From Planctomycetota bacterium (lineage in GTDB: Bacteria > Planctomycetota > Phycisphaerae > WQYP01): a stretch of 64,000 nt of DNA. Shown here piece after piece: positions 3,242-58,810 of the stretch. The notes below the pieces were generated by a model, which worked only from the letters and a program-made list of their open reading frames with translations, was not told the DNA's origin and searched no databases. The stretch spans positions 7,978 through 71,977 of the forward strand of contig JAJYFE010000002.1 of the NCBI GenBank assembly GCA_021785435.1, given 5' to 3'. Made by a program: the position numbers and the translations under genes. Each line of letters starts with the position of its first letter. Position 1 is the first letter of the stretch.

Positions 3242-3419
3242 CGGCAGCTCTTACACCTTTATGGCGGGCTTTTGATACTCTGCCATTCTATCCGGTTTCC
3301 ACGGCGCAGGCGTTCCCAAGCATGGGGCGATCGGCCGTGGGTGAGCGAGAACCGAAAGTCCCCCAACTGACCGCCCGAACATTCGCCCCCGCGACTGATT
3401 AAAATGGCTTGACTCCGCG

Positions 3420-3525
3420 CTGGAGTTTCGTCGCCCCCGGCGACTTTGGGGCTAGGTGGTACGCGGGGTTTTGAGTTCATAGCCCGGAGGTCGCCATGGG
3501 CGACGAAACTGCAGCGATGGGTGGT
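3420..3525. repeat. Head-to-head pair of ~47-bp family-1 palindromic elements (cores GTCGCCCCCGGCGAC at 3430-3444 and GTCGCCATGGGCGAC at 3490-3504)
   Basis: The two units are reverse complements of each other. The same unit recurs at 10040-10085 and 19048-19095. Confidence 0.6.
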
Positions 3526-7136: not shown

Positions 7137-8855
7137 TCAAAGGCCGAGTTGGGACTGCGCCGGCACCGGCTGCGGCGCCTGCACCGGCACGATCAAGCTG
7201 AAAGTGGCCCCTTCGCCGGTGGCGCTGACCAGTTCAATGCGGGCGCCAAGCATATCCGCCAATTCCTTGCTGATGGCTAGCCCCAATCCGGTGCCGCTGT
7301 GTTGCCGGGTGACCGATGCGTCGAGCTGGTGGAATTTTTCGAAAATATCGTGGTGATGTTCCAAAGCAATGCCGGGGCCGGTGTCGCGCACGGCGATTTT
7401 GACATGAGCGCCATCCGGGGCGCTCACCGTCAGCCGGACTTGGCCATCCGGGGGAGTAAACTTGATGGCATTGGAAAGCAGGTTGTACAAAATCTGTTGA
7501 AACCGCCCCGGATCGGTCGTAACCAGCGCAATCGCCCCCTCCACCGTCAGCCCCACGTCAAGATTCTTCTTCTGGGCCAGCGGCTTCATAAAATTAATCA
7601 AGGATTCACAAATGTCCGGCACGTTCACGCGTTCCAAACGCAGGACCATTTTACCCGCTTCGATTTTGGCCAGATCCAACAGGTCGTTGATCAGCTCCAA
7701 TAATTGGCGCGCACTGTGGAGAATGTTTTCAACGTAGCGGGCCAGGCGCGGGTCGGCCCGCGCGGATTCACCCGCCGCGAGCAATTCGGCGAAGCCGATG
7801 ATGGCGTTTAACGGGGTCCGCAGCTCATGGCTGACGTTGGTTAAGAACTCACTTTTGATGCGGTTGGCCTGAAACAAATCGACATTCCGCTGGGCCAGCT
7901 CCCCGACCCGGGTGTCCAGGCTGCGGTTGGTGGCCTGCAGTTGATCCTGGGACATTTTTAAAGTGGCGAGCATGGCGTTGAACGTTTCAGAAAGCTGCTG
8001 GAATTCGTCCCCGGTGGAAATGGCCGAGCGGATGGACAGGTCGCCTTGGGCCACTTTTTCGGCGGTGTTGCGCAGCACCCGCACGGGTTGGAGGATCAGC
8101 CGCGTGGTAATCAGGTAAAACACGATGATGGCCAGGGCGCAGCCGATCAGACCGGAAACGATGATCACCAGGCGATTCAAGAGCAATTGGTCTTCATCAA
8201 TGTGGACCGGCATGGCCACGCGCACCACCGCCACCAGCGGATGTTGGTCGTGGACGCCGGCGCCGCTTCGCGCCAGGGCGGCCGGTGATGGAAACCAGGC
8301 GGCCCAGTTGCCGTGGCAGCGCAAACAGGAAACCGAGGCTCGCACCGCGGAAACGTAGTCGTACCAGGGATGTTTCTGAAAGGCGTTTTCAACCCGGCCG
8401 AAATCAAGGCGCGACCCGTGCAGAAAAAGATGAATCGCCCGCAGCGTGAGCTTATCGCGAATTTTTGGCGCCACGCCCGGCGCCGGCAGGACCACAATGC
8501 GCGGCGCTGGATAGTTCTCACCGGGTAAACCCTTGGGCCCGCCGGCGCGCCGGCGCCAGGCGGGCGACGGCGGCTTGCTCGGACGAGTGGCGCCGACGTT
8601 CCTCGGGATCAAACCCGGCGCTTGGGATAGCGCGGCCTGTTGCAAGCGGACTGCCGGCGACGCTGGACTCTGATGCACCTGGCGCAGAGCCAGGTCCGCC
8701 GCAACCCGCGCTTCATAGTACGGCTGACGGTCGGTCAGTTGCTCCATCCGCTGCCACGGAATGGTCAGGGCGCCGGCGATAATGATCAGCACGGCAAAGC
8801 CAAACAGCAGCTGGCATTTCGCAGCCAGAGATATGGTCAGCTCGCGTTTGGCCAT
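7137..8855 (-). CDS. Sensor histidine kinase (TM segments, HAMP, HisKA, HATPase_c)
   Basis: H-box SHELRTPLNAIIGFAELL plus N/G1/G2 boxes (DTGPGI, GTGLGLAI). Start taken at the internal ATG at 8855 (MAKRELT); the upstream part of the ORF is Arg/Cys-rich junk. Confidence 0.8.
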   Translation of the reverse strand: MAKRELTISLAAKCQLLFGFAVLIIIAGALTIPWQRMEQLTDRQPYYEARVAADLALRQVHQSPASPAVRLQQAALSQAPGLIPRNVGATRPSKPPSPAWRRRAGGPKGLPGENYPAPRIVVLPAPGVAPKIRDKLTLRAIHLFLHGSRLDFGRVENAFQKHPWYDYVSAVRASVSCLRCHGNWAAWFPSPAALARSGAGVHDQHPLVAVVRVAMPVHIDEDQLLLNRLVIIVSGLIGCALAIIVFYLITTRLILQPVRVLRNTAEKVAQGDLSIRSAISTGDEFQQLSETFNAMLATLKMSQDQLQATNRSLDTRVGELAQRNVDLFQANRIKSEFLTNVSHELRTPLNAIIGFAELLAAGESARADPRLARYVENILHSARQLLELINDLLDLAKIEAGKMVLRLERVNVPDICESLINFMKPLAQKKNLDVGLTVEGAIALVTTDPGRFQQILYNLLSNAIKFTPPDGQVRLTVSAPDGAHVKIAVRDTGPGIALEHHHDIFEKFHQLDASVTRQHSGTGLGLAISKELADMLGARIELVSATGEGATFSLIVPVQAPQPVPAQSQLGL

Positions 8856-9889
8856 TGAGAACCGTTCAGCAATATGCGATGGTAGCTCGAACGCAGCGCA
8901 GCATAAAAACCCAAGATGGCGCCTGTCATGCCCGCTGCGACATAGGCGATCGGAAGACCGCGGACAAGGTAAATCGGCCAGCCATACACGGCCAGCCGTG
9001 GAACCTGGCCCGGAAGCGCCGCCGCGGAGGCCAGAGGGCTGGCGGCCAGAAGATAACCGGCAGCGGCCGTCGCAGGCACGGCCAGCCAGAGGCTCCAGGT
9101 GGAAGTCCCGGGAATCGTGCGACCGGTGGCAAACGTGGCGACAAAAAAAGCGGCAAAGCACGCAAACAAAACTTGCCCCACATCCTGAGATTGAAGCAAT
9201 ATTGCCAGAATTGCCCCCGCCAACAGGCCGGTTAACAAGAATCCAGCCACCTGATCAAGCCAACGGCCCGGTGACGCCTCAGCCGCCGATTTTGCGCCGG
9301 CCAGAAGCACCCGCCCCGTGGAAGGAAAACCTGGCCCCCCCGCCCCGACGGATCGCCACGGCGCCGCCCCCGGAACACCCAGCAGCGCCGGCCAATCCTG
9401 ATGCCGGGAAAACCAGGCAAAGACCAGCCGGCAGCAAACCTCGCCCAGCAGAATAAAGATCAGCCAAAACCCACATTGCAGCAGCAAGTTGTGGAAAACG
9501 CCGCTGGAAGCGGTAGGATCCAGCAGCAAGGGCTGGACCCCGCCCCAGCGGACCGCCAGGGCCATCAAGCCGGCGTTGGCGATGAACAGCCCGGCATGGG
9601 GCATGTCGCACCAGGTCACGAGCGTTCCCACCGCCAGCGCCAGCACCAGGGCGGCGAGAATCGCCCCTGCGGCGAACCCGGAAACCGCCGGCCCCCAGGA
9701 CAACGCCAGTGTTCCATCCAGCTCCGGCGCCGGCACGCTGTGCGTGCCAACCCATAGAAATATCGCCGCAGCGATGACGATGCCCACCAGATAGCGAAGC
9801 TCACGCAGGAAAAGCCGCGCCCCCAGGGGTACCGCGTGGTCACCCGACCTGGGGTTTATGGTTTTGTTGGAAGCTGTATCCTGCGACAT
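8837..9889 (-). CDS. Polytopic integral membrane protein, unknown function
   Basis: About 9 hydrophobic helices. The 3' end overlaps the histidine kinase start by 19 nt, suggesting an operon. Confidence 0.45.
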   Translation of the reverse strand: MSQDTASNKTINPRSGDHAVPLGARLFLRELRYLVGIVIAAAIFLWVGTHSVPAPELDGTLALSWGPAVSGFAAGAILAALVLALAVGTLVTWCDMPHAGLFIANAGLMALAVRWGGVQPLLLDPTASSGVFHNLLLQCGFWLIFILLGEVCCRLVFAWFSRHQDWPALLGVPGAAPWRSVGAGGPGFPSTGRVLLAGAKSAAEASPGRWLDQVAGFLLTGLLAGAILAILLQSQDVGQVLFACFAAFFVATFATGRTIPGTSTWSLWLAVPATAAAGYLLAASPLASAAALPGQVPRLAVYGWPIYLVRGLPIAYVAAGMTGAILGFYAALRSSYHRILLNGSQWPNAS

Positions 9890-10039
9890 AGTCGGCCCGT
9901 TGGAGACTCTATGAATCGAACCACCTTCGACAATTCCCGTGCCGGCTATTATATAGGTAACCGTTCACGGGCCGCACCTGGCCCCGCGGCACGCCCGATG
10001 ACCATCGGGAGGGCTGCCGAGGTATCATGCGGCCTGTGG

Positions 10040-10085
10040 TTCATAGCCTGGAGGTCGCCGTGGGCGACTAAACTGCAATGGTGGG
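10040..10085. repeat. Family-1 palindromic element, single copy (core GTCGCCGTGGGCGAC at 10054-10068)
   Basis: Aligns to the reverse complement of the 3421-3468 unit. Confidence 0.55.
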
Positions 10086-10197
10086 CGGGAACCGCCCCCG
10101 TCCCGAGAGTCCCGATGGACATCGGCAGACCTGTGAATGGTTATTTATATACTCGGACTGGATTGGGGAGCAGCGACACGTGCCAATAGTATGCTGG

Positions 10198-10368
10198 CGA
10201 GGATGTGGCCATAAATTGTGGCTCAACGTGGTAGGTCGAAGATCCGCCCCGGTGGACACACTCCGATGTGCTGTCCTCCCGCCGCTGCGACGCCGCGGGC
10301 GGTACGGCAACCTATCCCGACTTAGAGTACGCGGGATAGGATCGTGCCTGCTACTGCCACAATTTATG
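10198..10368. mobile_element. MITE-like element: 22-bp imperfect inverted ends (GGATGTGGCCATAAATTGTGGC vs its reverse complement, 2 mismatches) flanked by a 9-bp direct repeat TGCTGGCGA, with an internal hairpin CCTATCCCG-N10-CGGGATAGG
   Basis: 18-bp perfect inverted repeat at 10207-10224 and 10342-10359. The direct repeat TGCTGGCGA lies at 10194-10202 and 10364-10372. Confidence 0.4.
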
Positions 10369-11397
10369 GCCACGCCCTGCTGGCGACATGGTGGAACGCG
10401 GTGGAACGCTGTAGCGTTATGGGTCCTGTTCGCCTGGGCGAGCGCCTCGGTGGGCGCCGCTCCAGTGGTCCGCTCCACCCCACCGCCGCCGGCGAACCTC
10501 CCCGCCCACCCCCACCCGGAAACTCTGGTCCAACCTCTTAAAGTTCCGCCCGCCTCCGGCGGGGCCAGCGGTCTGCCGGTGGCCGCCGTGCGAACCAACG
10601 CAGCCTCCCGGCTCGCCACGGCAAGCCGGCCGATCCCCTCGCCGCCAGCCCTGCGTGAAGGCATGATGATCGTCCATGCTGCGGGCCTTCTGGTGCCCGC
10701 GCGGGGGGCGCGGTATGCGCGTTTCCAGTTTATCCTGCCTCCGCGGCGCTGGCCGCCGCGGGTAAGACTGTTACCCTGTCTGGCCCTCGCCGCCATGCAG
10801 ACTGCCGCGTCCAGGCGCCACCACGCCATTTTTGTCATCGACGGCCAAGTCCTGGTTTATAGGAGGAAAATTTACGTTTTGCCTTCGGCCAACATTCGCT
10901 GGCGCTGGACGCCACGGAGATCGACCGTCCGTGCGGGGCCGCACCCGGCAATCCAGATGGGCGCCGCCAGCGCCGGAAATCCCGAGGGGGTGCTACGAAG
11001 CCTCCTTAGGCACCACCTCCAGCGGCCGCTGGCGGCAATGAATCCAAGTCGAGCGGCCACACGGGTAAAGGCGATTCTGCCGTCGCCCGTGCCTGGAGCG
11101 CCGCTCACATGGCCGGCGCGGCCGCAAGAAAGCTATTTATGGAATCGCCGCGGTCGTCTGCTCTACAATCCGGCGGACCAAGACTGGTTATTGCAACTGC
11201 GCGCGCCCGACCATCTCCTACCCGGCGCCACGTTGATCCTGTTGCCCTGCCGCCTGCTGGCGGTGATGCGCCGACGGGCCGGCGCGAGGGTCAGCCCCCT
11301 GACGTTTCGCGTCAGTGGCCGGATTACCCAGTACCGACATCGCAATTATCTGTTGCTGACCTACGTGCACGTGTTCCATAACTTGGGCCGATTTTAA
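10363..11397 (+). CDS. Hypothetical secreted protein (signal-peptide-like N-terminus WNAVALWVLFAWASASVGAAP)
   Basis: Long ORF with Arg/Pro-biased composition and no recognisable domain. The start overlaps the right inverted end of the MITE-like element, so this could be spurious. Confidence 0.3.
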   Translation, partial: FMATPCWRHGGTRWNAVALWVLFAWASASVGAAPVVRSTPPPPANLPAHPHPETLVQPLKVPPASGGASGLPVAAVRTNAASRLATASRPIPSPPALREGMMIVHAAGLLVPARGARYARFQFILPPRRWPPRVRLLPCLALAAMQTAASRRHHAIFVIDGQVLVYRRKIYVLPSANIRWRWTPRRSTVRAGPHPAIQMGAASAGNPEGVLRSLLRHHLQRPLAAMNPSRAATRVKAILPSPVPGAPLTWPARPQESYLWNRRGRLLYNPADQDWLLQLRAPDHLLPGATLILLPCRLLAVMRRRAGARVSPLTFRVSGRITQYRHRNYLLLTYVHVFHNLGRF

Positions 11398-18849: not shown

Positions 18850-19047
18850 GGATGGCTCGCGGCGCGCCGGAGAAATTGGCCGCCGTCAGCCCTGCGCTGA
18901 CCGGACAAAAGGCTAATTCCGGCGCGCCGGCAGCGCACGGAGGAAAATAACGGGTGCGCCAGCCGTACGCCCCCGCATTCCTGAAAGCAGAGACAAATAA
19001 TATAGCGCGTAATCGTTCATAGGCCCAGGCCTGCCCCCGCGCTGCAG

Positions 19048-19095
19048 TTTAGTCGCCCGCGGCGACTTTGGGGCTATGTGGTACGCGACCAAGAG
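19048..19095. repeat. Family-1 palindromic element (core GTCGCCCGCGGCGAC at 19052-19066)
   Basis: CTGCAGTTTAGTCGCCCGCGGCGACTTTGGGGCTATGTGGTACGCG aligns with 3421-3468. Confidence 0.55.
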
Positions 19096-33388: not shown

Positions 33389-36300
33389 TTATTTCAGCGC
33401 GATCGCCACGCCGGCCATGACGCTTTGGGCCATCTGGTGTTCCTGGCCAACCTGGGCTTCATAATTGAGGAACAACGTCATATTCTTCGCCAAGTTGCCG
33501 CTGACGCCCGCCCCTAACAACGCCGAGTCTCGTTCCGGTGCGGGCGTGCTGATGGCAAACGGCACGCCGCCGGGGAAGAACGCATTGATCGCCCGACTGC
33601 CATTTAAATATTCATGCTGCCAAAAGGCGTTGCCGGTGAAATTCACCGCCGGGGCGGTTGGCCGCAGGCGCCAGGCGTAAGCGAGCTGGGCGCCGAGCAA
33701 GGACCGTAAGGAATCAACGGACATCGGTGCTATCGTCAGGTCCTGCGCCGGGGCGCCGGTTTCCGTATAACCGGAAACATTCAAGTGCGTGTAACCCAGG
33801 CCCACCGCGGGACCGGCCTTAAAGCCACGGAAGAAATGGAAGTTGTAGCCGGCCAGGGCGTCTAAATCGAACTGGTGGCCATAGGGACTGCTGCTGGCCG
33901 TGGCCGCGGTGACATTGCGGTGCAACCGGTAATCGTTGTACGTATAGCTGGCCAGGCCGTTCAGATAAAAATGGCTCTTCCGCACGCCAAAATAAACGCC
34001 TGGCGAATAGGCGTTGTCGCGCAGGGCGCTGCCGATATTGTCCAGCTTCGCGCCGGTATAGTTGTACGCGAACATCGCCCCGACCACCAAATGGGAGGCC
34101 AGGTTGTAATCCACGCCTGCAATCACCCCGCCGGTGGTGTAATGGGCCACTTCGCCGGTATCGGCGACGATGATATCGCCGGTGACAAAGCCGGAGAGGG
34201 TATTCTTCCGCGATTCACTGCTCGGGACCGGCACCGCCCCGCCTCCAGCCGCTACGCCGGGATTGAAGACATCCAGATCCCGCACAGAATCCCGCGCCTG
34301 CTGGCTGGTGGATTTCATCGCCGCGTTAAGCGCGGTGGTGAATGGATCCGCATCGGGCGTGTGCAGCAGGCTAAGGCCGGAGGCGTTAAAGCCGGTGACG
34401 CCATTAAAAATGTCGCCGATTTCCTGGAAGATCGTTTCACTGGTGAAGATGCCGGTTTCCACGCTCGTATTGCCCATATCCGCCGCCGCCTCTTCCGTCA
34501 GCTCCGGCTTGATGGGCAGAACCTCGATGGTATCCGTAGTGCTGGTGGCGGTCTGGGTAAGGGTGTATAGCGGATCGGTGCTCCTGGCGTTCGCGAACGG
34601 GCCGGTGACGCTGGCAGCGGTGACCACGGTGTACTTGTCCAGGGCGGCCGGGCTGTAGCCGTGGTTGAACTGCACCAACAGGTTGCCATTCGGCAAATTG
34701 GCTGTCCCAGCCACATTCAGCGTGTCGTAGCTGCCCGTGTCCGTCGATGGTCCGGCGATGGCCAGAACCAGGGTGGAATTAGCGCCCATGGTGTAATTGC
34801 CACCGACGTTAATGGCTATGCCGGTGCTGTTATTGATGTTGGCCGGAACGGCGTTGATGCTGGCCAGCACCGCCCCGCTGTTCAGGATGACATCGCCGGT
34901 TCCCAATGCCGAGGAATTGCCCACATCAATGGCGGCGCCGCTGTCAATGGTCGTGCCGCCGACGTAGCTGTTGGCATTGGGTAGGATCAGTTCGCCGCCG
35001 GGGCGGCTGGAGGCAACCGTCAACCCCCCGCCGCCGGTGATGGCGCCGGAATAGGTTTCCGCGGCAACGCCGCCGAAGCCGTTGGCATCGATGGTTCCGC
35101 TGCTACTGAGCGTCAGGTTGTTGGCGACGTTCAAACTCGCGGCGCCAAACTGAATCGTTCCACCCCCATCCCCCTTGATGGTGACGCCGCCGCTGCCGAG
35201 AGAGCTGGACTGGCCCACTTGGACCACGCTGGCATTGGTAAGAGTCGTGCCGCCCGAGTAAGTGTTGGCGCTGGAAAGAGCCAGGGTGCCGCCACCAGAT
35301 AGGATTAGGCTGCCGCCCGTACCGCTGCCGATGCCGCCATCTTGAACCACGCCGGCAAAGGTATTGGCGCCGCTGGAGATATTGATCGTCAAGGCCTTGC
35401 CGCCCAAGGCCACGGTTCCGCCCGCGCCCGTTAGGCCAAGAATAGTCGCACCGCTGGTGGTTTGCGAAATGTCAAACGCGGCCCCGCCGCTTAACGCCAC
35501 ACCGCTGGAATCGGCAATGCTCCCGGCGCCGGAAAGGGCCAGCGTGCCGGAAGCGACGCTGGTGGCGCCGGTGTAGGTCTCGGTCACGGAAAAGGTCAGC
35601 GTGGTATCCGCTGCGCCATTTTCGGCTACGCCGCCGCTGCCGGAGATTGCACCCGAAAGGCCGCTGCTGGCGGCCTGCGCGAAAATCAACGCTGTATTAT
35701 CAGTCACATTGCCGGTCAGCTCGGCGGTGCTGGCCGTGAATTCCAGCGTGCCGCCGGAGATGGTGGTCGTGCCGGTATAGGTATTCGCGCCAGAGAGGAT
35801 CAGCGTGCCGTTACCGCCAAGCACCAGGCTGCCGCCGGCGCCACTGCCGATACCGCCATCTTGAATCGCGCCGCCAAAGGTGTCGGAGCCGCTGGCGATA
35901 TTGATCGTCAAGGCTTTACCGCCCAAAGCGACGGTTCCCCCCGTGCCGGTCAGGCCAGGAATGGTTGCACCGCTGGTGGTTTGGGAAATATCCAACGTGC
36001 CGCCGCTGCTTAGCGCTACGCTGGAATCAGCGATGCTGCCGCCACTGCCCAGCGCCAGCGTGCCGGCGCTGATGGTGGTCGTCCCCGTGTAGGTGTTGGC
36101 ACCCGTGAGCGTTAGCGTGCCGGCGCCGGAAAGGGTCAGGCCGCCGCCCGTACCGCTGCCGATGCCGCCGTCCTGGATGACGCCGCCAAAGGTATTGGCG
36201 CCGCTGGCGACGTTCACCGTCAGGGTTTCGCCACCCAACGCCACCGTGCCACCCGGTCCGGTCAGGCCAAGTATGGTTGCACCTGTGGTAACTTGCGAAA

Positions 36301-39300
36301 TATCAAACGTCGCGCCGCTGCTCAAAACCACACCGCTGGAATCGGCCACGCCGCCGGCCCCGGAAAGCGCCAGCGTGCCGGCGCTGAGGGTGGTCGCGCC
36401 GGTGTAAGTGTTAGCGCCGGAAAGCGTTTCGGCGCCGGAATTGAGCACCACGCCGCCGTTGCCGCTGGCGCCGTTCTGGATGATACCGGAGAAGGTGCCG
36501 CTGGCGTCGGTTAGCGTCAAATTCTTCGCCCCCAGCGTGACGGTACCACCGCCCGCTAGCGAGGTGATCGACGTACCGGCGGCATTGATCCGTGAGATAT
36601 CAAACGTGGCCCCGCCGCCAACCGTCACCCCGCTGGAATCAGCGATGCTGCCATCCGTACTGGTGCCGCTGTTGTAGGCGAGCGCCAGCGTGCCGGAATT
36701 GACGGCGGTGGCGCCGGTATACGTGTTGACGCCCTCAAGCGTCAGCGTATCCGGCCCGGCGACGGTCAACACGCTGCCGCCAATGATGGGGGCGCTGATC
36801 GTGGCGCTGGCGTTCATGGTGACCGCGCCGTTGAGAACCAGGCTGCCTCCCCCGCTGGCGGCAATGGTATAGGAACCGCCTGTCCCCATCGCGTTAAATG
36901 TAATTCCCGCCGCGGTGACACCGGCCTGGTCAATCGTCACCGTGACCGCGCTGGTCCCGCCCGCGCCGAAGGAAGCGATATCACCGTTCGCCCACACTTG
37001 AGCCGTTCCGCCGGTCTGCGCTGTGCTCCACAGCGTGTTTCCGCTGCTGGTGTCCCAGTTGCCGTTGTTATCCGCCTGCGCTGTTCCGCCCACCGTGCCG
37101 GTCCAATAGAGCGTCGGCGTACTGACGAGCGAAATAACCTCGCCGGTGTCGGCCACATAGGCGGCCGTATAAGAAAGGGATCCCGCGTTGGTAAGATGCA
37201 CGGCGCTGAAATTACCGGTGACCGGGCCGGTCGTCCCAATCACGGTATAATTTTGGCCCGCCTGCGGGTTGGCGCCGCTGGCGAAGATCAAGTCCAGCGT
37301 GCCGGCCAATGAGGCCGCCCCGCTGCCGAGTCGAAGGGAATCGTAGCTGGTGCTGCTGCCCACCAGCAGGGCCAGCGTGGAATCAGCTTGCTGAGTGTAG
37401 CTGGCGGCGTTGACGGCCAGCGTCGTGCCCGATCCCGCCTGCGCGCCGGTGGTTTCAAGCGTTGTCCCGGAATTGACAGTTAAGGCCCCCGTTCCGAACG
37501 CGCTATCGCTGCCCGCGACCAACTTTCCATTGCTGACAACCGTTCCCCCGGTGTAAGTGTTGGTTCCAGAAAGCGTCAGTGTCGTGGCGGTCGTACCAGC
37601 ATCCAGGACCACGCGGCCGCCGCCGGAGATGACGTGTGAAAAACTGGTGTTGCCGGCTGGCGGCTCGGCGCTTGGGGCGAAGATCAGGGCGGAATTATCC
37701 ACGATGCCGCCGCCTAACTGCGACGTGTCGCCCTCCAATCGCAGCGTGGCGCCGTTGCCGATGGTGGTGGTGCCGCTGTAGGTGTTGGCGCCGGAAAGGA
37801 TCAGTTCGCCGCCGCCGTCGTTGGAGGTGACGGTCAAGGCGCCGCCACTGGTTTTGTCAGCGATCACACCGGAGAGCGTAAAGACCGTGCCCGTGCCGAC
37901 ATTGATCGTGTTGGTAACGCCCGTCCCGTTGAAAAGATACCAGTTGTTGGCGAGGCTGGAACCGCTGCCGCTGTTATTGTCGCCGAAGTCAATGGTTCCG
38001 TTGTCCAGGTAAAACAGGACGTTGCTTGTCGGCTGCCCGCCGCCGCTGCCGACCTGGAATGTCGTCGGCGTGCTCGCCCCGCCGCCGATTTGCAGCGTAC
38101 CGGCGGTCACGCCCGTGAAGTTAGCGCCATTGTCGACAAAAGTGCCGTCCGTCAATACCAGAATATTGCCGGCGCCGCTGCTGGTGACCGATCCGCTCAG
38201 GGTGAGCGTCTGGCCACCGGCGTCAATGAAGTTGTTGGCGCCGGATATGGTAATGTTATTGGGGACACCCAGCCCGATTCCCGTTTCATTTACAAATGTT
38301 CCATCATCCAGCGCGATGGTGGCGCCGGCGCCGATAAAGCCATTAGCCTTCGGCCCGGCCGTAAATGTCGCCGCGGTGGCCAGCGTGCCGTTACCGGTCT
38401 GAATTGTCCCCGCGGTAAAGCCGGTAAAACTGCCATTATCGACAAATCCGCCGTCCTGCAGGATCAACGTGTTTCCCGCCGCGGCGCTGCTGACCGTACC
38501 GGTCCAGGTGATGGTGGTGCCGAAGCCGCCGGCGTCGATGGTATTGGTGGTCGAGCCGGTGACGGTGATAGCGGTGTTCGATGAGAAGCTCGTGCCGCTC
38601 GCATTGACCACTGTGGCGCCTGCGAGCGTCAGCGGACCGGTTCCAAGGTCGGGTCCGGACGTTGTCTCCAAGTCAACTGTTACGCCGCCTTCCAACGTGG
38701 TGCCGCCGCTGTAAGTGTTGGCGTCGCTTCCCAAGGTGAGCGTATGGGCCCCGGTGATGGTCACCGCGCCGCTGCCGGAGATCGCGTGCGAAAAACTGGT
38801 GTTGGCCGTTAGTTCAAAAATCAGGGCGGAATTATCCACGATGCCGCCGCCTAACTGCGAGATGTCACCTTCCAGCTCCAGTGTCGCGCCGGCCTCAATC
38901 GTGGTCGTGCCGGCGTAGGTGTTCGCCGCCGGATTGCCGCCGCTCTGGGGGTTCAAAATCAAGGTGCCTCCGGCGGTGCTGGAGGCGACCGTCAGGCCGC
39001 CACCGCCGGAAATAACGCCGTCGAGTTCCTGCGAGCTTTCGTTGCCCACGTCGATGGTGTTGGTGACGCCCGTGCCGGAAAGGAGGGTCCAGGGATTGCT
39101 CCTCGGGCTCCCGGCGCCGCCGCTGCCGCCGGCGAAGGACAACGTGCCGTTGTCGAGTTGAAAGATCACGGCACTTTTGGGCTGACCGTTTGCGACGTTG
39201 TTGCCGCCGACCTGCAAAGTTGCCGGCGTGTCGGCCCCACCGCCAATTTGCATCGTGCCAGCAGTGACGCCGCCGAAATCGGCGCCGCTAAGCACAAAGT

Positions 39301-40075
39301 GGCCGTTCTGGAAGACCAGGGTGTTGCCGACGCCGCTGCCGCTGGATCCAGTGCCGTTGACGATGGAACCGCTAAGCGTCAGCGTGTTGCCGGAACCACC
39401 GGCATCGATGATGTTGACGGTCGTGCCCGAGGTGTCGGTGATGTTGATGCCGGTGATAATGCCGCTGGTGCTGGTGCCGGCCGTAAGGTCCAGTGTCCCG
39501 CCACCGGTGAACTGAAGGCTGACGGGAATCGCGGGGCTGGCGTTTTGAAACATGCTTAACGTGTCGTAAGAAACGCTGACCGGACTGTTGCTGCTGTTAA
39601 CAGCGATACCATATTGCACGGTGGTTGTGCTTGGATTGGCGGTCGAGCTTTGGTAGGTGCCACTACTATTTATCCATCCAAGCACCAGGTCGGTCGCATC
39701 TTTTGAAGTATCATAGATATTACCGAGGTCCCAGGTGCCGGCGGTGACGATCTGCGGTGAAGTGGGCGAGGATGCCTCTTCGCCTACGCCGGTAGTCGTA
39801 GCCCCGGTCGACTCCCAGGTCATTGGAAATTGTTTCTGCACCGGGCCTTCATAGCCCGCCGGGATCACCAAGCCCGCGTCTGTGCTTGAGAACACGGAGT
39901 ACCCCTGCATCTGGGTGCCATTGCCAACCAAACTTAGGTCACCGCTGGCAATATCCACCTCTATGGTCATATCGCTCGATGACGGTGGCAGCGTGAACGC
40001 CATCGCGGGCAGGGATAGGGAACCAACGGCGGCCATCGCGGCCAACAGGCACAGTCTCTTCTGGGTACGTTTCAT
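33389..40075 (-). CDS. Giant type Va autotransporter: signal peptide, passenger with many autotransporter-associated beta-strand (PATR) repeats, C-terminal 12-strand beta-barrel translocator
   Basis: Signal peptide MKRTQKRLCLLAAMAAVGSLSLPAMA, start ATG at 40075. Dozens of LTLSGANTYTGTTTISAGTLAL repeats with ~516-bp periodicity in the DNA. Autotransporter barrel (GVDYNLASHLVVGAMFAYNYTG ... LNYEAQVGQ). Confidence 0.85.
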   Translation of the reverse strand: MKRTQKRLCLLAAMAAVGSLSLPAMAFTLPPSSSDMTIEVDIASGDLSLVGNGTQMQGYSVFSSTDAGLVIPAGYEGPVQKQFPMTWESTGATTTGVGEEASSPTSPQIVTAGTWDLGNIYDTSKDATDLVLGWINSSGTYQSSTANPSTTTVQYGIAVNSSNSPVSVSYDTLSMFQNASPAIPVSLQFTGGGTLDLTAGTSTSGIITGINITDTSGTTVNIIDAGGSGNTLTLSGSIVNGTGSSGSGVGNTLVFQNGHFVLSGADFGGVTAGTMQIGGGADTPATLQVGGNNVANGQPKSAVIFQLDNGTLSFAGGSGGAGSPRSNPWTLLSGTGVTNTIDVGNESSQELDGVISGGGGLTVASSTAGGTLILNPQSGGNPAANTYAGTTTIEAGATLELEGDISQLGGGIVDNSALIFELTANTSFSHAISGSGAVTITGAHTLTLGSDANTYSGGTTLEGGVTVDLETTSGPDLGTGPLTLAGATVVNASGTSFSSNTAITVTGSTTNTIDAGGFGTTITWTGTVSSAAAGNTLILQDGGFVDNGSFTGFTAGTIQTGNGTLATAATFTAGPKANGFIGAGATIALDDGTFVNETGIGLGVPNNITISGANNFIDAGGQTLTLSGSVTSSGAGNILVLTDGTFVDNGANFTGVTAGTLQIGGGASTPTTFQVGSGGGQPTSNVLFYLDNGTIDFGDNNSGSGSSLANNWYLFNGTGVTNTINVGTGTVFTLSGVIADKTSGGALTVTSNDGGGELILSGANTYSGTTTIGNGATLRLEGDTSQLGGGIVDNSALIFAPSAEPPAGNTSFSHVISGGGRVVLDAGTTATTLTLSGTNTYTGGTVVSNGKLVAGSDSAFGTGALTVNSGTTLETTGAQAGSGTTLAVNAASYTQQADSTLALLVGSSTSYDSLRLGSGAASLAGTLDLIFASGANPQAGQNYTVIGTTGPVTGNFSAVHLTNAGSLSYTAAYVADTGEVISLVSTPTLYWTGTVGGTAQADNNGNWDTSSGNTLWSTAQTGGTAQVWANGDIASFGAGGTSAVTVTIDQAGVTAAGITFNAMGTGGSYTIAASGGGSLVLNGAVTMNASATISAPIIGGSVLTVAGPDTLTLEGVNTYTGATAVNSGTLALAYNSGTSTDGSIADSSGVTVGGGATFDISRINAAGTSITSLAGGGTVTLGAKNLTLTDASGTFSGIIQNGASGNGGVVLNSGAETLSGANTYTGATTLSAGTLALSGAGGVADSSGVVLSSGATFDISQVTTGATILGLTGPGGTVALGGETLTVNVASGANTFGGVIQDGGIGSGTGGGLTLSGAGTLTLTGANTYTGTTTISAGTLALGSGGSIADSSVALSSGGTLDISQTTSGATIPGLTGTGGTVALGGKALTINIASGSDTFGGAIQDGGIGSGAGGSLVLGGNGTLILSGANTYTGTTTISGGTLEFTASTAELTGNVTDNTALIFAQAASSGLSGAISGSGGVAENGAADTTLTFSVTETYTGATSVASGTLALSGAGSIADSSGVALSGGAAFDISQTTSGATILGLTGAGGTVALGGKALTINISSGANTFAGVVQDGGIGSGTGGSLILSGGGTLALSSANTYSGGTTLTNASVVQVGQSSSLGSGGVTIKGDGGGTIQFGAASLNVANNLTLSSSGTIDANGFGGVAAETYSGAITGGGGLTVASSRPGGELILPNANSYVGGTTIDSGAAIDVGNSSALGTGDVILNSGAVLASINAVPANINNSTGIAINVGGNYTMGANSTLVLAIAGPSTDTGSYDTLNVAGTANLPNGNLLVQFNHGYSPAALDKYTVVTAASVTGPFANARSTDPLYTLTQTATSTTDTIEVLPIKPELTEEAAADMGNTSVETGIFTSETIFQEIGDIFNGVTGFNASGLSLLHTPDADPFTTALNAAMKSTSQQARDSVRDLDVFNPGVAAGGGAVPVPSSESRKNTLSGFVTGDIIVADTGEVAHYTTGGVIAGVDYNLASHLVVGAMFAYNYTGAKLDNIGSALRDNAYSPGVYFGVRKSHFYLNGLASYTYNDYRLHRNVTAATASSSPYGHQFDLDALAGYNFHFFRGFKAGPAVGLGYTHLNVSGYTETGAPAQDLTIAPMSVDSLRSLLGAQLAYAWRLRPTAPAVNFTGNAFWQHEYLNGSRAINAFFPGGVPFAISTPAPERDSALLGAGVSGNLAKNMTLFLNYEAQVGQEHQMAQSVMAGVAIALK

Positions 40076-40258
40076 GGCACTTTCCCTTTCATATAATGGG
40101 GCATGATAATCCTCATCGTTGCCACCTGGCCAATAGCGTCTGCGCCCGAACCGAATACGCCTTTGACCGCAAAAAATTTCCCCTGTTTCGCGCCAGAAAA
40201 AGCTGGAGCGCATAATAACCAGGCCGACCAAGGCTGTCCACACATTACAGTTCACTCC

Positions 40259-43200
40259 TCACGCGGCCAACAGCGCCCCGGATATCAACGGCGGCTGCAG
40301 CGGATTGGCCAAAAGCCCTGTTGGGCCAATGATCGCCGGAGGTAGGGCAAATTCACTGTTGTCCGCGGTTGGCGCTGTGCCGCCCGCGAAGCTTGCTTCA
40401 GATGCGGCGCCGAATATCGATCCGCCGACAGTGACGGATGGCGTCAAATTGCCGGTGGGGCCCACGCCACCGGTGCACGGCGCAGCGGGCGTCAACGTGC
40501 CAGTGTTATTCAGCGTCAATGTCTCGCCGGTATTCAGGCTCGGCGCGCTATCGAGTGTCGCCGTCAAGGTCAGGACCGCGCCACCGCCCGCGCCGCCCGG
40601 GGTCAAGCCGGCGCCACCGGGCGTGGTGGCGCCGGACAAAATGGCGTCGATGGCCGGCGACTGCGTGGTGGCGCTCAACGCCTTACCATAGTGGTCACGC
40701 ACCGCCGTGAAGTCTTGCAGATTCACGACACCGCTGTAGCCGAAGTTGCCGTGGTCCCAGCCCTGATTCGCCTGGCCGTAATGATCCCGCACCGCGGTGA
40801 AATCCGGCAAGGTCACGAGGCCGTCCAGGTTGGCATCGCCCGGCAGGGTGGCCATGATTTTCTCCTGGCCCGCGCTTAAGCCGTTGACAACGCCATCGGC
40901 GCCGTTGGCGTAGCCTACGCTATAGCCGCTCGGCGCGGTGATGGCGCCACTGGCGATGTAGCCCTGGATCGTGGTATTGGGGTTTGTCCCGCTGCCATAG
41001 GTGATGATCACGCCGTTGCCAACAGCAGTGTTATCCAGATTCAGCGTCGCCCCGCCGGCGATCGTCAAACCGGACGTGCCGTCCAATGTGCCGCCGGAGC
41101 CGACAATCAGCGCACCGGCGTTGATGGTTGTCAGACCGGTGAAAGTGTCGCTGTTTTCAAGGGTCAACGCCCCGCCGCCGGTGACGGTCAAACCGCCGTT
41201 GCCGGTGATGGCGCCGGTCGCGAGGCTAGCCAACAGATTGGTGTTGACCGTGCCGCCGCCGCTGTTGAGCGTCAGGGCGTTACCGATGGTCAGGCTGCCG
41301 CCGCTGTTGTTTTCCAATGTGCCGCCGTCGAGGGTGATCCCGCCACCGGGCAGGGCGTTGCCCGAGTCGGCCAGCAGGGTCGAAGAACCGGCGGTATCGC
41401 TTAATTCCAGCGTGCCCGCAAAACCCGCATTGTTGCCGGAAAGCTCGACGTTGCCGTCGGTCAGTTGCAGTGTGGCTGCCGCTGGACCGTCGATGTCGCC
41501 GGTGAATTGGAGCGTATATGCACCGCTGAAACCGCCGGAGTCGATTATATTCGAAGTTCCCGATACCGCCAGAACATTACCAATGCTCACTGTGGATGCC
41601 GTGGAACCGGTGTAAGCCAGGTCGCCATTATTCAAAGTGATCGTGGCGCCGGGAGCGGGCAAACTCGCGGGGCTGGCGAACTGCAGTGTGGCCGCCGCCA
41701 AAGGCCCACCAACCTGCAACGTGCCGAGGGTGAAATCGCCCGTGCCATTGTTGGTGCCGCTGAAATTGACTGCACCATTTTCAATCGTCAACGTCTGGCC
41801 GGTCGTATCGGTGACCGTTCCGGAATACGTCACAGGGTTACTGGCGGTGGCCCCGCCGGCATTGATGATACCGTTAGCCTGAAGGGTGAGGTTATTCGCA
41901 GAGCTTAGACCGGAGGCATATTGCAGGGTGCCGCCACCAAGACCAACGGTAATGGCGGCGCTGGCTGGCAACAGCGCGGGTGCCGTGGTGAAATCGACCG
42001 TGGCGCCATTCTCAAGCGTCAGACCGCCGGTTAGCTGCGAATCATCACCGCTTAGCGTGAGCGTATGAGGGCCAGAGACAACCAACGGCCCGCTGGCGAT
42101 GATCGGGGCACTGATGGTGGCGTTATTGTCGAGCGTGATGGTGCCGCTAAGGGTCAAAGGATCGCTGCTGGTGCCGGAAATTGTGTAAGAATCGCCGCTG
42201 CCCATGCTGTTGAAGATCAGGCCACCGGCGGAAACCTGGCCGCCACTGTCATCAATAGTGATTGTGTACGATCCGCTGCCGCCGTTGCCGATGGAAGCAA
42301 CATCGCCGCTGGTCCAGGCCGTGGTGCCGCTGCCCCAGCTGGCGGCGCTCGCGCTCCAGGTGCCGTCGCCATCAACGCCGGTGCCCTTTGGATCCCAAGT
42401 TAACGCCGTTGGCCCCGCGGTAGGCGTCAACAAAAACGCCTCGGTTTTGCCGCCGCGAACGGCCCCGAACCCTACGATGTCTCCGTTGGAATTAATGCCC
42501 GTGGATTCCTCAAGCGCCCAGCCCGGATTGTTCAGAATCAATGAAGCCAGTGGTGTCATGGTTCCATTGGCGTAGATGAAGGCCTGGCTGTCACCAAGCG
42601 AGTCCGAACGGTAGTAGCCCACAATGACGCCTGAATTGTTGATCGCCAAGGGGTACGTGCCGAAGCCATCGACGTCGCCTAAGTCATGCATCGTGCCATC
42701 GTAGAAGAAAGCATGGTCATCGCCGCCGGTGGTGGCGGGAGAGAAGCCAACCACGTCGCCGGAATCATTGACCGCGGTAGCAGTGCTGGCGTTGCCGCCC
42801 AGCGTACCAAGATCCTGCATTTCAGGATTGCCGGAGACACCGCTGGTCCCACCGTTGGTCCACAGGAACGCGTGGGATGGATTCCCCGTGCCGGAGGTCG
42901 TTGAACTGCCAACGATATAGGTACCGTTCGGGCTGATTCCGCTGGCATAGCTTGCTGATCCACCCAGCGTGCCCAAATCCGTCATGCTGTTGTTTGACAC
43001 GGTCGGGTTGGGGAAGAGGAACGCATGGTATGCGTCGGCGTTGGTGCCGCTGGTGCCGACTACGTCTCCAGCGGTGTCAATGCCCGCACCGTAGCTGACT
43101 GGAAGACCCAGCGAGCCGCTCAGTGAGCCTAGAGCCACCGTGAGTCCGCCGGTGTCTGCGGTGCCGCTGCCGCCCGAATAAAGGAACGCATTGTAATTTT

Positions 43201-43741
43201 GCCCGGCGGTTTGGCCGGAGCCGGCGATCTGGCCGCTGGCGTTAATGGCGAGCGCCGACCAGTTGGAACTGCCCGGGAACGGCACGGGGCTATATTGGTT
43301 GCCGGAATACACGAACCCCTGGTTGTAGGAGGAAGTTGAGGTCTCAAAAGTCGCGTAACCCACGATCTGGTTGGAGTCGTTCATCCCGGTGGCGAACGTG
43401 GCCGAGGCGTCGGAAGGAATGCCCAAGCCCTGAATCGTATAATAAGTTGGCACGGATGGAGCATCAGTGCCGGCCTGTTGCGACCCGGCCGTCAACGGCA
43501 TCACAACCGACGCGGATGTCGGCGGGTTATTCGCCAACAGGCCAGCGGCGGCCCCGGCCGATGCGCTCAGGAGCACGCGCGGCTCCAGCGCTTCAAGACG
43601 TGGGCCGCGCCGTGCCACGCGGCGATGCTTGGCGGCCCTGCGGCGGCTGCGCCTCCGTAATACGCTGTCCAAATTGTGCAAAAAGATAAGGAAGGGCACC
43701 GCCGCACTCCCTAAATTCGAGCACCGCTCGCTGGAATCCAC
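40259..43741 (-). CDS. Giant secreted protein: Arg-rich N-terminus with a LEALEPRVLLSA motif, beta-strand repeat passenger-like region, two dockerin-like Ca-binding repeats
   Basis: N-terminus RRRSRRRAAKHRRVARRGPRLEALEPRVLLSASAG. Dockerin-like DANLDGLVTLPDFTAVRDHYG and VVNLQDFTAVRDHYG. PATR-like GxxTLTLSG repeats. Confidence 0.7.
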   Translation of the reverse strand: MDSSERCSNLGSAAVPFLIFLHNLDSVLRRRSRRRAAKHRRVARRGPRLEALEPRVLLSASAGAAAGLLANNPPTSASVVMPLTAGSQQAGTDAPSVPTYYTIQGLGIPSDASATFATGMNDSNQIVGYATFETSTSSYNQGFVYSGNQYSPVPFPGSSNWSALAINASGQIAGSGQTAGQNYNAFLYSGGSGTADTGGLTVALGSLSGSLGLPVSYGAGIDTAGDVVGTSGTNADAYHAFLFPNPTVSNNSMTDLGTLGGSASYASGISPNGTYIVGSSTTSGTGNPSHAFLWTNGGTSGVSGNPEMQDLGTLGGNASTATAVNDSGDVVGFSPATTGGDDHAFFYDGTMHDLGDVDGFGTYPLAINNSGVIVGYYRSDSLGDSQAFIYANGTMTPLASLILNNPGWALEESTGINSNGDIVGFGAVRGGKTEAFLLTPTAGPTALTWDPKGTGVDGDGTWSASAASWGSGTTAWTSGDVASIGNGGSGSYTITIDDSGGQVSAGGLIFNSMGSGDSYTISGTSSDPLTLSGTITLDNNATISAPIIASGPLVVSGPHTLTLSGDDSQLTGGLTLENGATVDFTTAPALLPASAAITVGLGGGTLQYASGLSSANNLTLQANGIINAGGATASNPVTYSGTVTDTTGQTLTIENGAVNFSGTNNGTGDFTLGTLQVGGPLAAATLQFASPASLPAPGATITLNNGDLAYTGSTASTVSIGNVLAVSGTSNIIDSGGFSGAYTLQFTGDIDGPAAATLQLTDGNVELSGNNAGFAGTLELSDTAGSSTLLADSGNALPGGGITLDGGTLENNSGGSLTIGNALTLNSGGGTVNTNLLASLATGAITGNGGLTVTGGGALTLENSDTFTGLTTINAGALIVGSGGTLDGTSGLTIAGGATLNLDNTAVGNGVIITYGSGTNPNTTIQGYIASGAITAPSGYSVGYANGADGVVNGLSAGQEKIMATLPGDANLDGLVTLPDFTAVRDHYGQANQGWDHGNFGYSGVVNLQDFTAVRDHYGKALSATTQSPAIDAILSGATTPGGAGLTPGGAGGGAVLTLTATLDSAPSLNTGETLTLNNTGTLTPAAPCTGGVGPTGNLTPSVTVGGSIFGAASEASFAGGTAPTADNSEFALPPAIIGPTGLLANPLQPPLISGALLAA

Positions 43742-44102
43742 CGGGTAATCAGCCAGACGCCAACAAAGTCACCTGGCGCAGCGCCATTGACCCTGTGGCG
43801 ACAGGATCAAACCGCCGCGTGTGCCCAAAAACCGCCTCTTGCCCCGAAAATCCAGACCGCCATGCCCGTTGGCCTGCCCATGCATCGCGGCACGAGGCGG
43901 CGCGCCGAGTCGCAGCAACTCTACTCCGTCTTTCCCTCCCATACGAAATACAACAACCGGTTGAAAGAGTTACGGCAGATGAATAACCCGGCAACCGGAT
44001 TGCAACACAAAGAACGACTGCATTGTCGGACCCCCAAGATATCTGTCAAGCCACCAATCATGATGGCAGCAACCCGGCGTCTGCGTTCAACCGGGCGCCC
44101 CC

Positions 44103-47100
44103 TCAAAGCGGCCTCGCCTCTAACGGCAACCTTAAAATATCCGGCGCAAGGCTGGCGTCCAATCCACCCGCTAGCCGGGACGTGGGGCTGGCTCCCGGCG
44201 GAGAAACCGTGCCGAAGCTCGCGGTGGAAATCGGCCCGCCGGAGAAATCCCCCGCTGGCAGGATCCAATATGCGCTACCGCCGAACGACGCGACGACCCG
44301 GACGGCGCCCGAGGTCGTCGAACGGGCCAGCGCCGAGCCGATCGCCGAATCGAAGGCAAGCGCACTACCGTTGCCCGCAACCCCGGCCCCGGCGCGACCA
44401 AGCGGGACCCCTACCTGTGCGGCGGGCCCGTAGCCGCTATTCAATGAGCCAGCGTGTGTCCGGCTCGTGCCCTGGCTGCTCTGCGGGACCGCGGTCGCGC
44501 TAACCACACCCGGTACCAGGAGGTTCGCTATCGGGCTGCCCAAGCCGGTGACCAAGTCGTACCCGGGGCCAGCGTAGTAGCCGTTATAGCCGCTGGTAAT
44601 GTCGTGGAAATCCGTGCTTGGGAGATTATAAAGTGCAGATAGGGTCTGGCCCGAAGAGAGAGAGCCGTCACCCAAAGACGCCCGGCCCTGGTCGACGAGC
44701 GCTACCAGGCCAGCCCACATGGGACAAGCCAGGCTCGTACCGCCCTCCTCTCTATTTATCCACGGTGCCGCTGATCCATAGTCGTAGGAGTCATAGATCG
44801 GCACGCCAGTGGCTGGATCGGCGTCCATCGAGACATCGGGCGTGGTTCGGTACCCAGAACCTAGCCCGTTGGTCTTGCCGCTCTGGTAGGCTGGCTGCGG
44901 TTCGCTTTGGCTGATCCCGCCACCCCCGGCGATCGCTGGATTCCACGAGTCGCTTCCCAGGCTCCAGCCCACCTCGCCACCCCAACTATACCCGCCGCTG
45001 CCATTCGCGTTGACAGTGAGCGTCGTTCCCCCGACCGCGACCACATTGGGCGAATAAGCTGGGTAATTGCCGGGCGCTCCCTGGTCCCCCGTCGAAGCGA
45101 GGAACGTGACTCCACCCGCCAAGCCGGAGCCGCCCGTGTGCCCGGGAGGCGTCACCAGAAGTTTATCGTAACTCGGTTCATATGACCACCACAAGGTCGT
45201 CAGGTCCGACTCAGGCTCGCCCCAGCTCATGGAAACCGCGACGACCCCATTCAACGATGCCGCGGTCTGCACGGCGGTATAAAGGTCGCCAGCAGAGCTA
45301 TTCGCCTCGACGAGCACGATATTGGCGTCCGGCGCGATGACGTGCGCCCATTCGACGTCAAGGGATTCCTCGCTGGTCCAGCTACCGCCATCGGACGGCA
45401 ACTCCGATGAACCACCATCCTGGTTGACCACGGAAAGCGTCGGGCCGCCTGCCGTACCGAACTGCGGCAGACCAAATTCAGCGCTAAACGCATTGGCATC
45501 GGCAACAATGTAGGGATCGTTGTACGCATCGACGATAGCGATCGTCTGGCCCTGCCCGTAAGCCGGCGTACCGCCAAAATTAATCGTGCTGGCGCCATAG
45601 GCGCCCAGACCATACGCCTCCCGCATTTGCGTCGGCGTCAGTCCGGACGGCGTGGTGCTGCCTGGGCCCAGAGCGGGGAGTATGGCCGTAGCGACATTCG
45701 AGACTAAACCCGTGCCGGGGTTGCTTACGGTAACTTCAATGGTATCGCCCGGCTGAGCTTGGTAAGGCCAGTCGCCATACGCCCAACCGCTGAACCCCGC
45801 AACCGTTAACTCTGAGTCGGTCCAATTCGTCACCTCCAGGCCAACAGCATCGCCCGTGCCGCCAGCGTGGAAGTCTTGCGTGACATCGTACACGTCGATG
45901 TACGGGCTTGTGCCGTCGAAAGCTGCCTGCGAGCCGAAGCCGCTGCCACTGATCGTGAGGTCATCATTGTAGTACCAGAGAAACTCGGTTGGCGAACCGG
46001 GAGCAACGCCTGATATCGCTGGTGACTGGGCAGCCGAGTAAGCCGCCAGGTACGGTACCAGCAGGTTGGCCTTGGGGGTTCCCAGGCCTGTCTCATCCTG
46101 ATAGCCGTATTTGGCGTACTGGGAGCCGGCGCTGTTGAGGTAGAAGTCGCTCGCGGAGGCGGTGTACAAGGCGGGCAACGTTTGTGCGTTTCCCGTGAGC
46201 GTCGGCAGACCAGCGTCTGCACGCCCCTGATCCGCCAACGCAATCAGACCGGCCCACTGCGGCGCGCCGGCGCTGGTCCCCAGAACGGCCTCCCAGCCGC
46301 TGCTGGTGTAGATAGCGTACGGCTTAGCGCAGTATGACACGTCCGGGGTGGAGCGGTCGGAGGTGTCGGAGAGGCCGTTGGCGCCCTGTTGATAGCTTGG
46401 CTGCGGCTCGTACTGGCTGGTACCCCAAGCAGTGCCCTGATAGGGACCGTTGCCATCGTGCCAGGCGCTCTCACCACCGGATGGATAGTCGCCCGCAGCA
46501 TCCAGCCCACCGGTCGCCGAAGGGCCGTTAAACACCGTGCCGCCGACGGATAAAACATTGCCTGAAGCGGACGGCCAGTTCACCGTGTTCCATTGGTCGC
46601 CGGCGGCGGCGACGAACGTGACACCGCTCGTTGCGAACGCGGAGTCGAGGGATGTTTCCGTCGCACCACCCCAAAGGGAATCGGACGAATTCCATTCCCG
46701 CCACCCGAGGCTCATCGACACAACCGACGGACTAAAGTTCAGCGCGGTTTTCACAGCGTTCGCTAGATCCACAGGGCTATATGCGCCAATCTGAGGGAGG
46801 CCCCGCCAGGTCCAACCGACCCACGCACTGCTGTCTTCCTCCACTACGACGATTTTCGCGGCCGGCGCCACGGCGTGCGCCCACTCAACGTCAAGCACGT
46901 TTTCCAGTCCATCGCCCGAATCGTTGCCGCAGTTTTCAGTGTCGGGATTATACTGGCCGGGCGAAAGCACGTTGCCGTTTTGGTCGGTTACCGTCAGCCA
47001 GGTACTGGCACCACCGTAGGTGCCATACAGGTTATCGCCATTGGCCGCCTTCATGTTGTAGTCAAACGCGTTCACATCTGCGTAAAGGTTTAGATCGTTG

Positions 47101-58372: not shown

Positions 58373-58424
58373 GGTTCCATCCTAACGCTTACCCGCGAGC
58401 CTGGCGAGAGCGAAGGTGCACTTC

Positions 58425-58525
58425 TATAATACTATGGGGTTCGCCAGGGGGAGCGCCGATGCTTAACTGAGCATACACCCTTGGAATCCCAGCGCGCCGG
58501 GATTTGTACCGGTGTAAGGAACGCG
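58425..58525 (+). ncRNA. TPP (THI-box) riboswitch
   Basis: ACTATGGGGTTCGCC...CTGAGCATACACCCTTGGAATCC...GGGATTTGTACCGGTGTAAGGAA matches the THI-box cores (CUGAGA, ACCCUU-GAAYC, GUAAGGGA-like). A perfect TATAAT lies at 58425-58430 just upstream. thiC is downstream. Confidence 0.7.
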
Positions 58526-58810
58526 AGCCCATGGCTCCCGCAAAGGTCACCCGCTGGCCGGCCTTCCCATTACGCCGCAGGTTCGCCGGCGCGGCTTTTC
58601 GGCCCCTTACCAGGGTAACTGGGACGCCGCCCCCGATCGAAGAGTCGCCGTGGAGACCCGCTGTCCGCCCCGCCAACGGCCGGGCAGGTCGCCAGGGGGC
58701 GACTCGCAGACTGGCAAGCTTTGTCGAGTCGCCCCGAAGGGTTCTCCGTGGCGACTTGGTGGCGACCAGGCGCTGCCGATGGGCAACGCCGATTTTCAGG
58801 AGTCGCACTC

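Follow-up and report, generated by a model that had tools for sequence, protein, structure and literature searches.

Bacterial MITEs are elements of 70-300 bp with terminal inverted repeats (TIRs) of 15-30 bp and no coding capacity, of which RUP, NEMIS/Correia, ERIC and Nezha are named examples (PMC3733652). MITEs of the IS6 family consist of two IS ends without an intervening ORF and are bordered by 8-bp target repeats (PMC7986276). Among other palindromic repeats, the Rickettsia palindromic elements (RPEs) are inserted in frame within ORFs, and REP sequences are hairpins of 20-40 bp with a GTAG or CGTC tag, often arranged as inverted doublets and inserted without target duplication (PMC3733652).

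The sequence described here lies in a 64-kb stretch of DNA, the whole of which was analysed and is referred to as the window, and it had been flagged in an initial annotation as a MITE-like insertion. That reading was supported by the TIRs, by the flanking duplications, by copies at unrelated loci and by an empty site at leuA; the flagged sequence is a real MITE of 177 bp, without a gene of its own. It belongs to a low-copy and previously undescribed MITE family of uncultured planctomycete (Phycisphaerae-like) bacteria and is an ordinary kind of element. With a size of 141-177 bp, 22-bp TIRs and a target duplication, the family resembles the bacterial MITEs, as it does in its intergenic location, its strongly folding palindrome, the lack of a constrained ORF and the presence of multiple diverged copies; it differs in its low copy number and in its host, an uncultured Planctomycetota lineage. 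The likeness to the IS6-family MITEs extends to two IS-like ends and a duplication of 8-9 bp, but no parent IS was found here, in the window or among the matches to the TIR core. We consider it about 85% probable that the element is a 177-bp MITE mobilized by a transposase acting in trans, with a target cut staggered by 8-9 nt. The family adds a documented MITE to a phylum in which the biology of mobile elements is almost unexplored.

The window has a GC content of ~62% and carries core chromosomal genes, including those for squalene/phytoene synthases, PGK, a histidine kinase, SecA, ThiC and PurC; its sequence is identical to contig DAICGJ010000054.1 of MAG GCA_027429555.1. The element is located between two divergently transcribed genes, in an intergenic region of 476 bp. 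The gene on the minus strand (8837..9889) encodes a 350-aa membrane protein, and that on the plus strand (10366..11397) encodes a conserved hypothetical secreted protein of 343 aa as annotated, the 5' end of which is overlapped by the element.

The element measures 177 bp from TIR to TIR and 195 bp when both direct repeats are included. The repeat finder placed the left copy of the 9-bp target-site duplication, TGCTGGCGA, at 10192..10200, where it abuts the left TIR, a 22-bp sequence on the plus strand (GGATGTGGCCATAAATTGTGGC, 10201..10222) that was identified both by reading and by the repeat finder. The interior of 133 bp (10223..10355) is non-coding, contains the inner hairpin and several GC-rich sub-hairpins, was delimited from alignments and nhmmer, and gave no Pfam or Rfam match. 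The right TIR, GCCACAATTTATGGCCACGCCC, occupies 10356..10377 on the minus strand, where it reads GGGCGTGGCCATAAATTGTGGC, and it contains an ATG at 10366-10368. It is followed at 10378..10386 by the right copy of TGCTGGCGA, which encodes residues 5-7 (C-W-R) of the annotated protein. The right TIR is the reverse complement of the left at 20 of 22 positions, with two mismatches (21/22 in the orthologous copy L012), and the two direct repeats are identical at 9/9 positions and abut both TIRs. The inner hairpin is formed by 9-bp arms, CCTATCCCG at 10311-10319 and CGGGATAGG at 10332-10340, separated by a loop of 12 nt. The initial annotation was thus accurate in describing 22-bp inverted ends with two mismatches, identical 9-mers abutting both of them and an inner hairpin with a 9-bp stem, while its positions needed correction: the left end, given as 10203-10224, was displaced by 2 nt and the right end, given as 10342-10363, by 14 nt, the 9-mers lie at the positions above, and the loop had been read as 10 nt.

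Other copies of the inverted ends were sought by scanning one genome per species for exact matches to an 18-mer of the TIR core. The scan returned 17 loci, seven of them relevant matches in four Planctomycetota MAGs, a number well above chance; most of the others fell in the part of sigma-54 activator genes that encodes the FVAINCG motif, or were due to chance. Further copies were recovered by translating the two open frames of the element and searching protein collections, in which spurious public ORFs span copies of it; neither the translations of the element nor the spurious public ORFs P0014 and P0015 had a Pfam match. Together with the window, the family is present at five independent loci, with full copies at four further unrelated loci in closely related MAGs and lengths from 141 to 177 bp. 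These are L014 (= L038; 863-1003), a copy of 141 bp upstream of leuA in the same MAG as L012; L036 (309-470); L034 (= L035; 3134-~3300), where the neighbouring genes, ydjC and a malK-like gene, are convergent; and L049 (1846-2001). The last three are those spanned by spurious public ORFs. The MAG YP1.bin19 carries two copies (L012 and L014). Neither the window nor ~320 kb of related sequence contained an extra copy. The TIR had no match in viral contigs, in plasmids (blastn) or in a full-text literature search, and a scan of JGI metagenomes with the TIR core, extended by a prefix excluding the FVAINCG coding matches, gave only low-GC chance matches; across these collections no similarity to a described MITE family was seen.

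The family TIR consensus is GGGYGTGGCCATAAATTGTGGC, and three interior core blocks, AGTAGCAGGCACGATCCTA, GCCCGCGNCGTCGNAGCGGCGGGAGGAC and CATCGGAGTG, are common to all family copies. Besides having the TIRs and these blocks in common, the paralogous copies show 77-84% identity where they align; two indels, of 15 and 21 nt, set them apart. The orthologous locus was found in L012 and in L023, the latter through the neighbouring protein; both are ~93-95% identical to the window, genes and spacer alike, and at the position of the left duplication they carry TGCTGGCCA, which matches at 8/9 positions. Identity at this locus was uniform at 92-95%, with no difference between the element and its flanks. 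The copy in the window is probably an old insertion that no longer moves, because it is common to relatives that have diverged by ~5% and its paralogues are only 77-84% identical to one another.

The length of the duplication varies: it is 9 bp in the window and 8 bp with one mismatch at L014 and L036, the two other copies whose TIRs are well preserved. At L014 the flanks are CCAAGGGT and CCAGGGGT, an 8-bp repeat matching at 7/8 positions, and at L036 they are GTCGAAAG and GTCGGAAG, also 7/8 over 8 bp; the background frequency of a flank match of at least 7/8 at fixed register is 6e-4. At the copies with decayed TIRs, L034 and L049, no recognisable duplication was found. A comparison with an empty site in relatives had been proposed, and such a site was found at the paralogous leuA locus, with the 8-bp target present once. 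The locus is filled in L014 and L038 and empty in L037, L039-L043 and L045, the assembly flanks being ~96-98% identical. Removal of the element and one 8-bp copy from L014 yields the empty alleles, in which CCAGGG[A/G]T occurs once at that point; the empty alleles L037, L039-L043 and L045 carry CCAGGGAT once and L046 carries CAGGGGT once. The empty site is not perfectly clean, as the filled allele lacks 15-16 nt adjacent to the target. For the locus in the window itself, the element is present in every relative that has this gene order. No empty allele was found there: the more distant homologues of the 343-aa protein lie in a different neighbourhood, and the contigs that encode the identical neighbour protein match the window at 100% identity.

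Two further observations were made around leuA. In L046 (contig DAICGJ010000003.1 of GCA_027429555.1, the window's own MAG) the gene order seen in L014 and L037 breaks at ~1180-1290, exactly at the MITE target CAGGGGTGG; upstream of the break the sequence is unrelated and a 774-aa gene is present instead of leuA. This may represent a rearrangement at an insertion hot spot. On the minus strand of L014, at ~640-700, a terminator-like hairpin (CCCCGCGAGCGGTCCTCGCGGGG followed by T6) is located immediately upstream of the leuA start codon and is conserved in L037 and L045; it may be a leader or attenuator.

In the proposed mechanism, a transposase supplied in trans, probably of the DDE type, would bind the 22-bp TIRs and join the element to a target cut with a stagger of 8-9 nt, repair of which would give the flanking direct repeat. 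A full-length element with the same ends and a transposase, which the initial annotation had suggested looking for, was found neither among the matches of the 18-mer scan nor in the window, where no transposase gene or domain was detected. The parent IS family was not assigned because no autonomous partner transposase was found. A duplication of 8-9 bp fits IS1, IS256, IS5/IS903, ISL3, IS6, IS1595 and ISAs1, and by fitting several IS families it identifies none of them. The TIR core, ATAAATTGTG, may bear a loose resemblance to the IS256 end.

The ORF overlapped by the element, which had been regarded as of low confidence, is a real conserved gene. MAGs of Phycisphaerae and other Planctomycetota encode homologues with 90% and 36-41% identity, and its reading frame is backed by the GC3 signal. 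No Pfam domain was found in the 343-aa protein. The suggestion that the element had disrupted or created an N-terminus was reasonable and right in substance. The annotated ATG at 10366 lies within the right TIR, such that M-A-T-P is encoded by the element and C-W-R by the duplicated target, and it gives a complete, normal signal-peptide N-terminus without reading through the element. An in-frame GTG upstream of the element (10180..10182, plus strand), which is used by a public gene call of 405 aa, is a candidate for the start codon before insertion; in the reconstructed pre-insertion sequence it would give M-P-I-V-C-W-R and then the same signal peptide. The insertion would have landed in the first codons of a conserved gene for a secreted protein, and the ATG of the right TIR would replace, or compete with, the GTG at 10180. 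Should the transcription start lie upstream of the left TIR, this ATG would be trapped in the 22-bp stem.

Together, the element and one copy of the target amount to 186 nt, or 62 codons, which keeps the reading frame of the downstream gene, and no stop interrupts that frame within the element in the window, L012 or L023. In being in frame and free of stops in the window and both orthologues, the element resembles the RPEs; it differs from them in that no sign of its being translated was found, that ~6/10 substitutions between the window and L012 in the open frame change the amino acid (a hand count of few substitutions), and that the ATG of the right TIR suffices for the signal peptide. The public gene calls at this locus conflict: one starts at the ATG (343 aa), another runs from the GTG through the element (405 aa), and a third is an antisense ORF of 256 aa across the element. 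The existence of three incompatible calls is due to the element, through which two reading frames are open and which provides an ATG in frame. The element explains the annotation problem at this locus, which illustrates clearly and on a small scale how a transposon can remodel the 5' end of a conserved gene.

That the inverted and direct repeats coincide by chance is a reading to which we attach a negligible probability. It is favoured by the presence of a single copy in the window, but two matches to the 18-mer TIR core (with up to three mismatches) were observed in the 64 kb against 0.02 expected, none of 100 shuffles reached two, and flanking 9-mers matching at 9/9 positions at fixed register have an empirical frequency of 2e-5 across the window. 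The initial annotation had allowed that the ends might have no other copies and the repeats be accidental; homologous copies elsewhere speak against both, and the chance reading is refuted because paralogous copies exist. The element might instead serve the host as a cis-regulator or a structured RNA: a hairpin in the 5' UTR could, for instance, control translation of the 10366 gene by sequestering its ATG, and the palindrome would then be kept for its RNA function. In keeping with this, the ATG sits inside the 22-bp stem, some stem mismatches are G.U on the plus strand (judged by eye), and the fold is very stable, with -106 kcal/mol for a 201-nt stretch on the plus strand against -73.5 +/- 4.6 for shuffles (z = -7.1); the fold of the element on the minus strand is slightly weaker. 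Against it, the copies occur in unrelated contexts, one of them between convergent genes, and RNAalifold on six copies gave a covariation term of +2.65, that is, no covariation, with double changes in only 2 of 47 predicted pairs. The TIR mutations in L036, L034 and L049 break pairs without compensation, no Rfam match was obtained at the gathering threshold or at E<=1, and the flanking duplications and the empty site indicate insertion, not vertical descent of a regulator. We regard an RNA function of this kind as very unlikely. A promoter or 5'-UTR role does not define the family, because one copy lies between convergent genes and no sigma-70-type promoter was called. Three specific candidates were also rejected: a promoter in the AT-rich TIR core, since no sigma-70-like site was called, no conserved -35 is present upstream in the copies and L034 lies between convergent genes; a sigma-54 promoter or DnaA box, resemblances in which the spacing does not fit (by eye); and a retron ncRNA, the downstream ORF having no reverse-transcriptase or any other Pfam domain.

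Movement as single-stranded DNA by a tyrosine transposase (HUH/RAYT or TIRYT), as a REPIN-like or hairpin element and not by a DDE enzyme, would agree with the absence of a DDE partner among our matches and with a separate REP-like family with an inverted doublet in the same genome; palindromic repeats with TIRs linked to tyrosine transposases have been described (PMC3733652). The element shares with REP/REPIN (RAYT) sequences the character of a palindromic extragenic repeat, but it does not have the features of a REP: instead of two short REP hairpins it consists of 22-bp terminal repeats around an interior of 133 bp, and duplications of 8-9 bp flank three independent copies. HUH/RAYT-type transposition is not known to make such 8-9-bp duplications, and we hold this route to be most improbable. 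A different possibility is raised by the end sequence itself, because the exact 22-24 nt, (AC)GGGTGTGGCCATAAATTGTGGC, occur alone in two other Planctomycetota MAGs, L004 and L007, which have no other nucleotide similarity to this genome. Both solo copies lie in divergent intergenic regions and point to a gene 260-320 nt away (serA-like in L004, mutS-like in L007), and no partner TIR within 3.5 kb and no duplication was found for either. The simple reading is that they are solo-TIR relics, but an exact solo TIR of 22 nt is not predicted by simple decay. Together with a TIR-like palindrome of 40 bp inside a 594-bp repeat in JA3.bin18 (L002, L010), the solo copies favour the idea that the 22 nt serve first of all as a site bound by a host protein or as a piece of a promoter, the element being a locally generated palindrome and its direct repeats incidental. 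That idea leaves unexplained the conserved 130-bp interior at five loci, the differing duplications and the filled/empty polymorphism; in addition, no sigma-70-type promoter was called in the region, and in L007 a canonical TTGACA-N17-TACAAT lies ~200 nt further downstream. It is accordingly judged highly improbable. Less improbable, if still unlikely, is that the 22-24-nt end functions as a signal in the host, perhaps as part of a promoter or as a site bound by a protein, which these elements carry and spread in Planctomycetota. Were this so, the persistence of exact solo copies upstream of the serA-like and mutS-like genes would be accounted for, and the break in gene order at one of the element's target sites in the window's own MAG would fit as well.

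Several other repeats were seen in the course of the analysis. The 594-bp repeat at L002 and L010 lies at contig ends of JA3.bin18, is 95% identical between the two contigs and contains runs of TTGGCCAAC and GTGGCCAAC units; in L002 it adjoins an ORF that by eye resembles an IS3-type OrfA. Directly beside the MITE, at 9945-10155 of the window, is a second hairpin-bounded block of ~210 nt with arms TATATAGGTAACCGTTCACGGG and CCTGTGAATGGTTATTTATATA, whose four mismatches all form G.U pairs on the plus strand. Its fold of -109 kcal/mol corresponds to z = -4.5 on the plus strand, with z = -2.6 on the minus strand; an Rfam search of the block gave no match, and in L012 and L023 it is conserved to the same degree as its flanks. 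It may represent a transcribed RNA or a further mobile element.

The REP-like repeat, GCAGTTTAGTCGCCCNCGGCGACTTTGGGGCTA, is ~33-37 nt long and different in sequence from the MITE. It occurs on the plus strand at 3422-3454 and 19044-19076 and on the minus strand at 3480-3512 and 10044-10076, and the pair at 3418-3516 forms an inverted, REPIN-like doublet. A 78-nt block rich in GTCGCC...GGCGAC hairpins (58657-58734) was found just upstream of thiC and is 87% identical to 1346-1420 of L034, an unrelated locus of another MAG, which on sequence similarity suggests a further dispersed repeat family. The ~350 nt upstream of thiC (58373-58720; thiC, 58721-60562) gave no Rfam match for a TPP riboswitch at the gathering threshold or at E<=1, and a stretch resembling CTGAG...ACCCTTGGAA was noted there by eye near 58460-58490. 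On the minus strand, at 33389-49856, the window also carries, side by side, three ORFs of very large size (2288, 1160 and 1917 aa).
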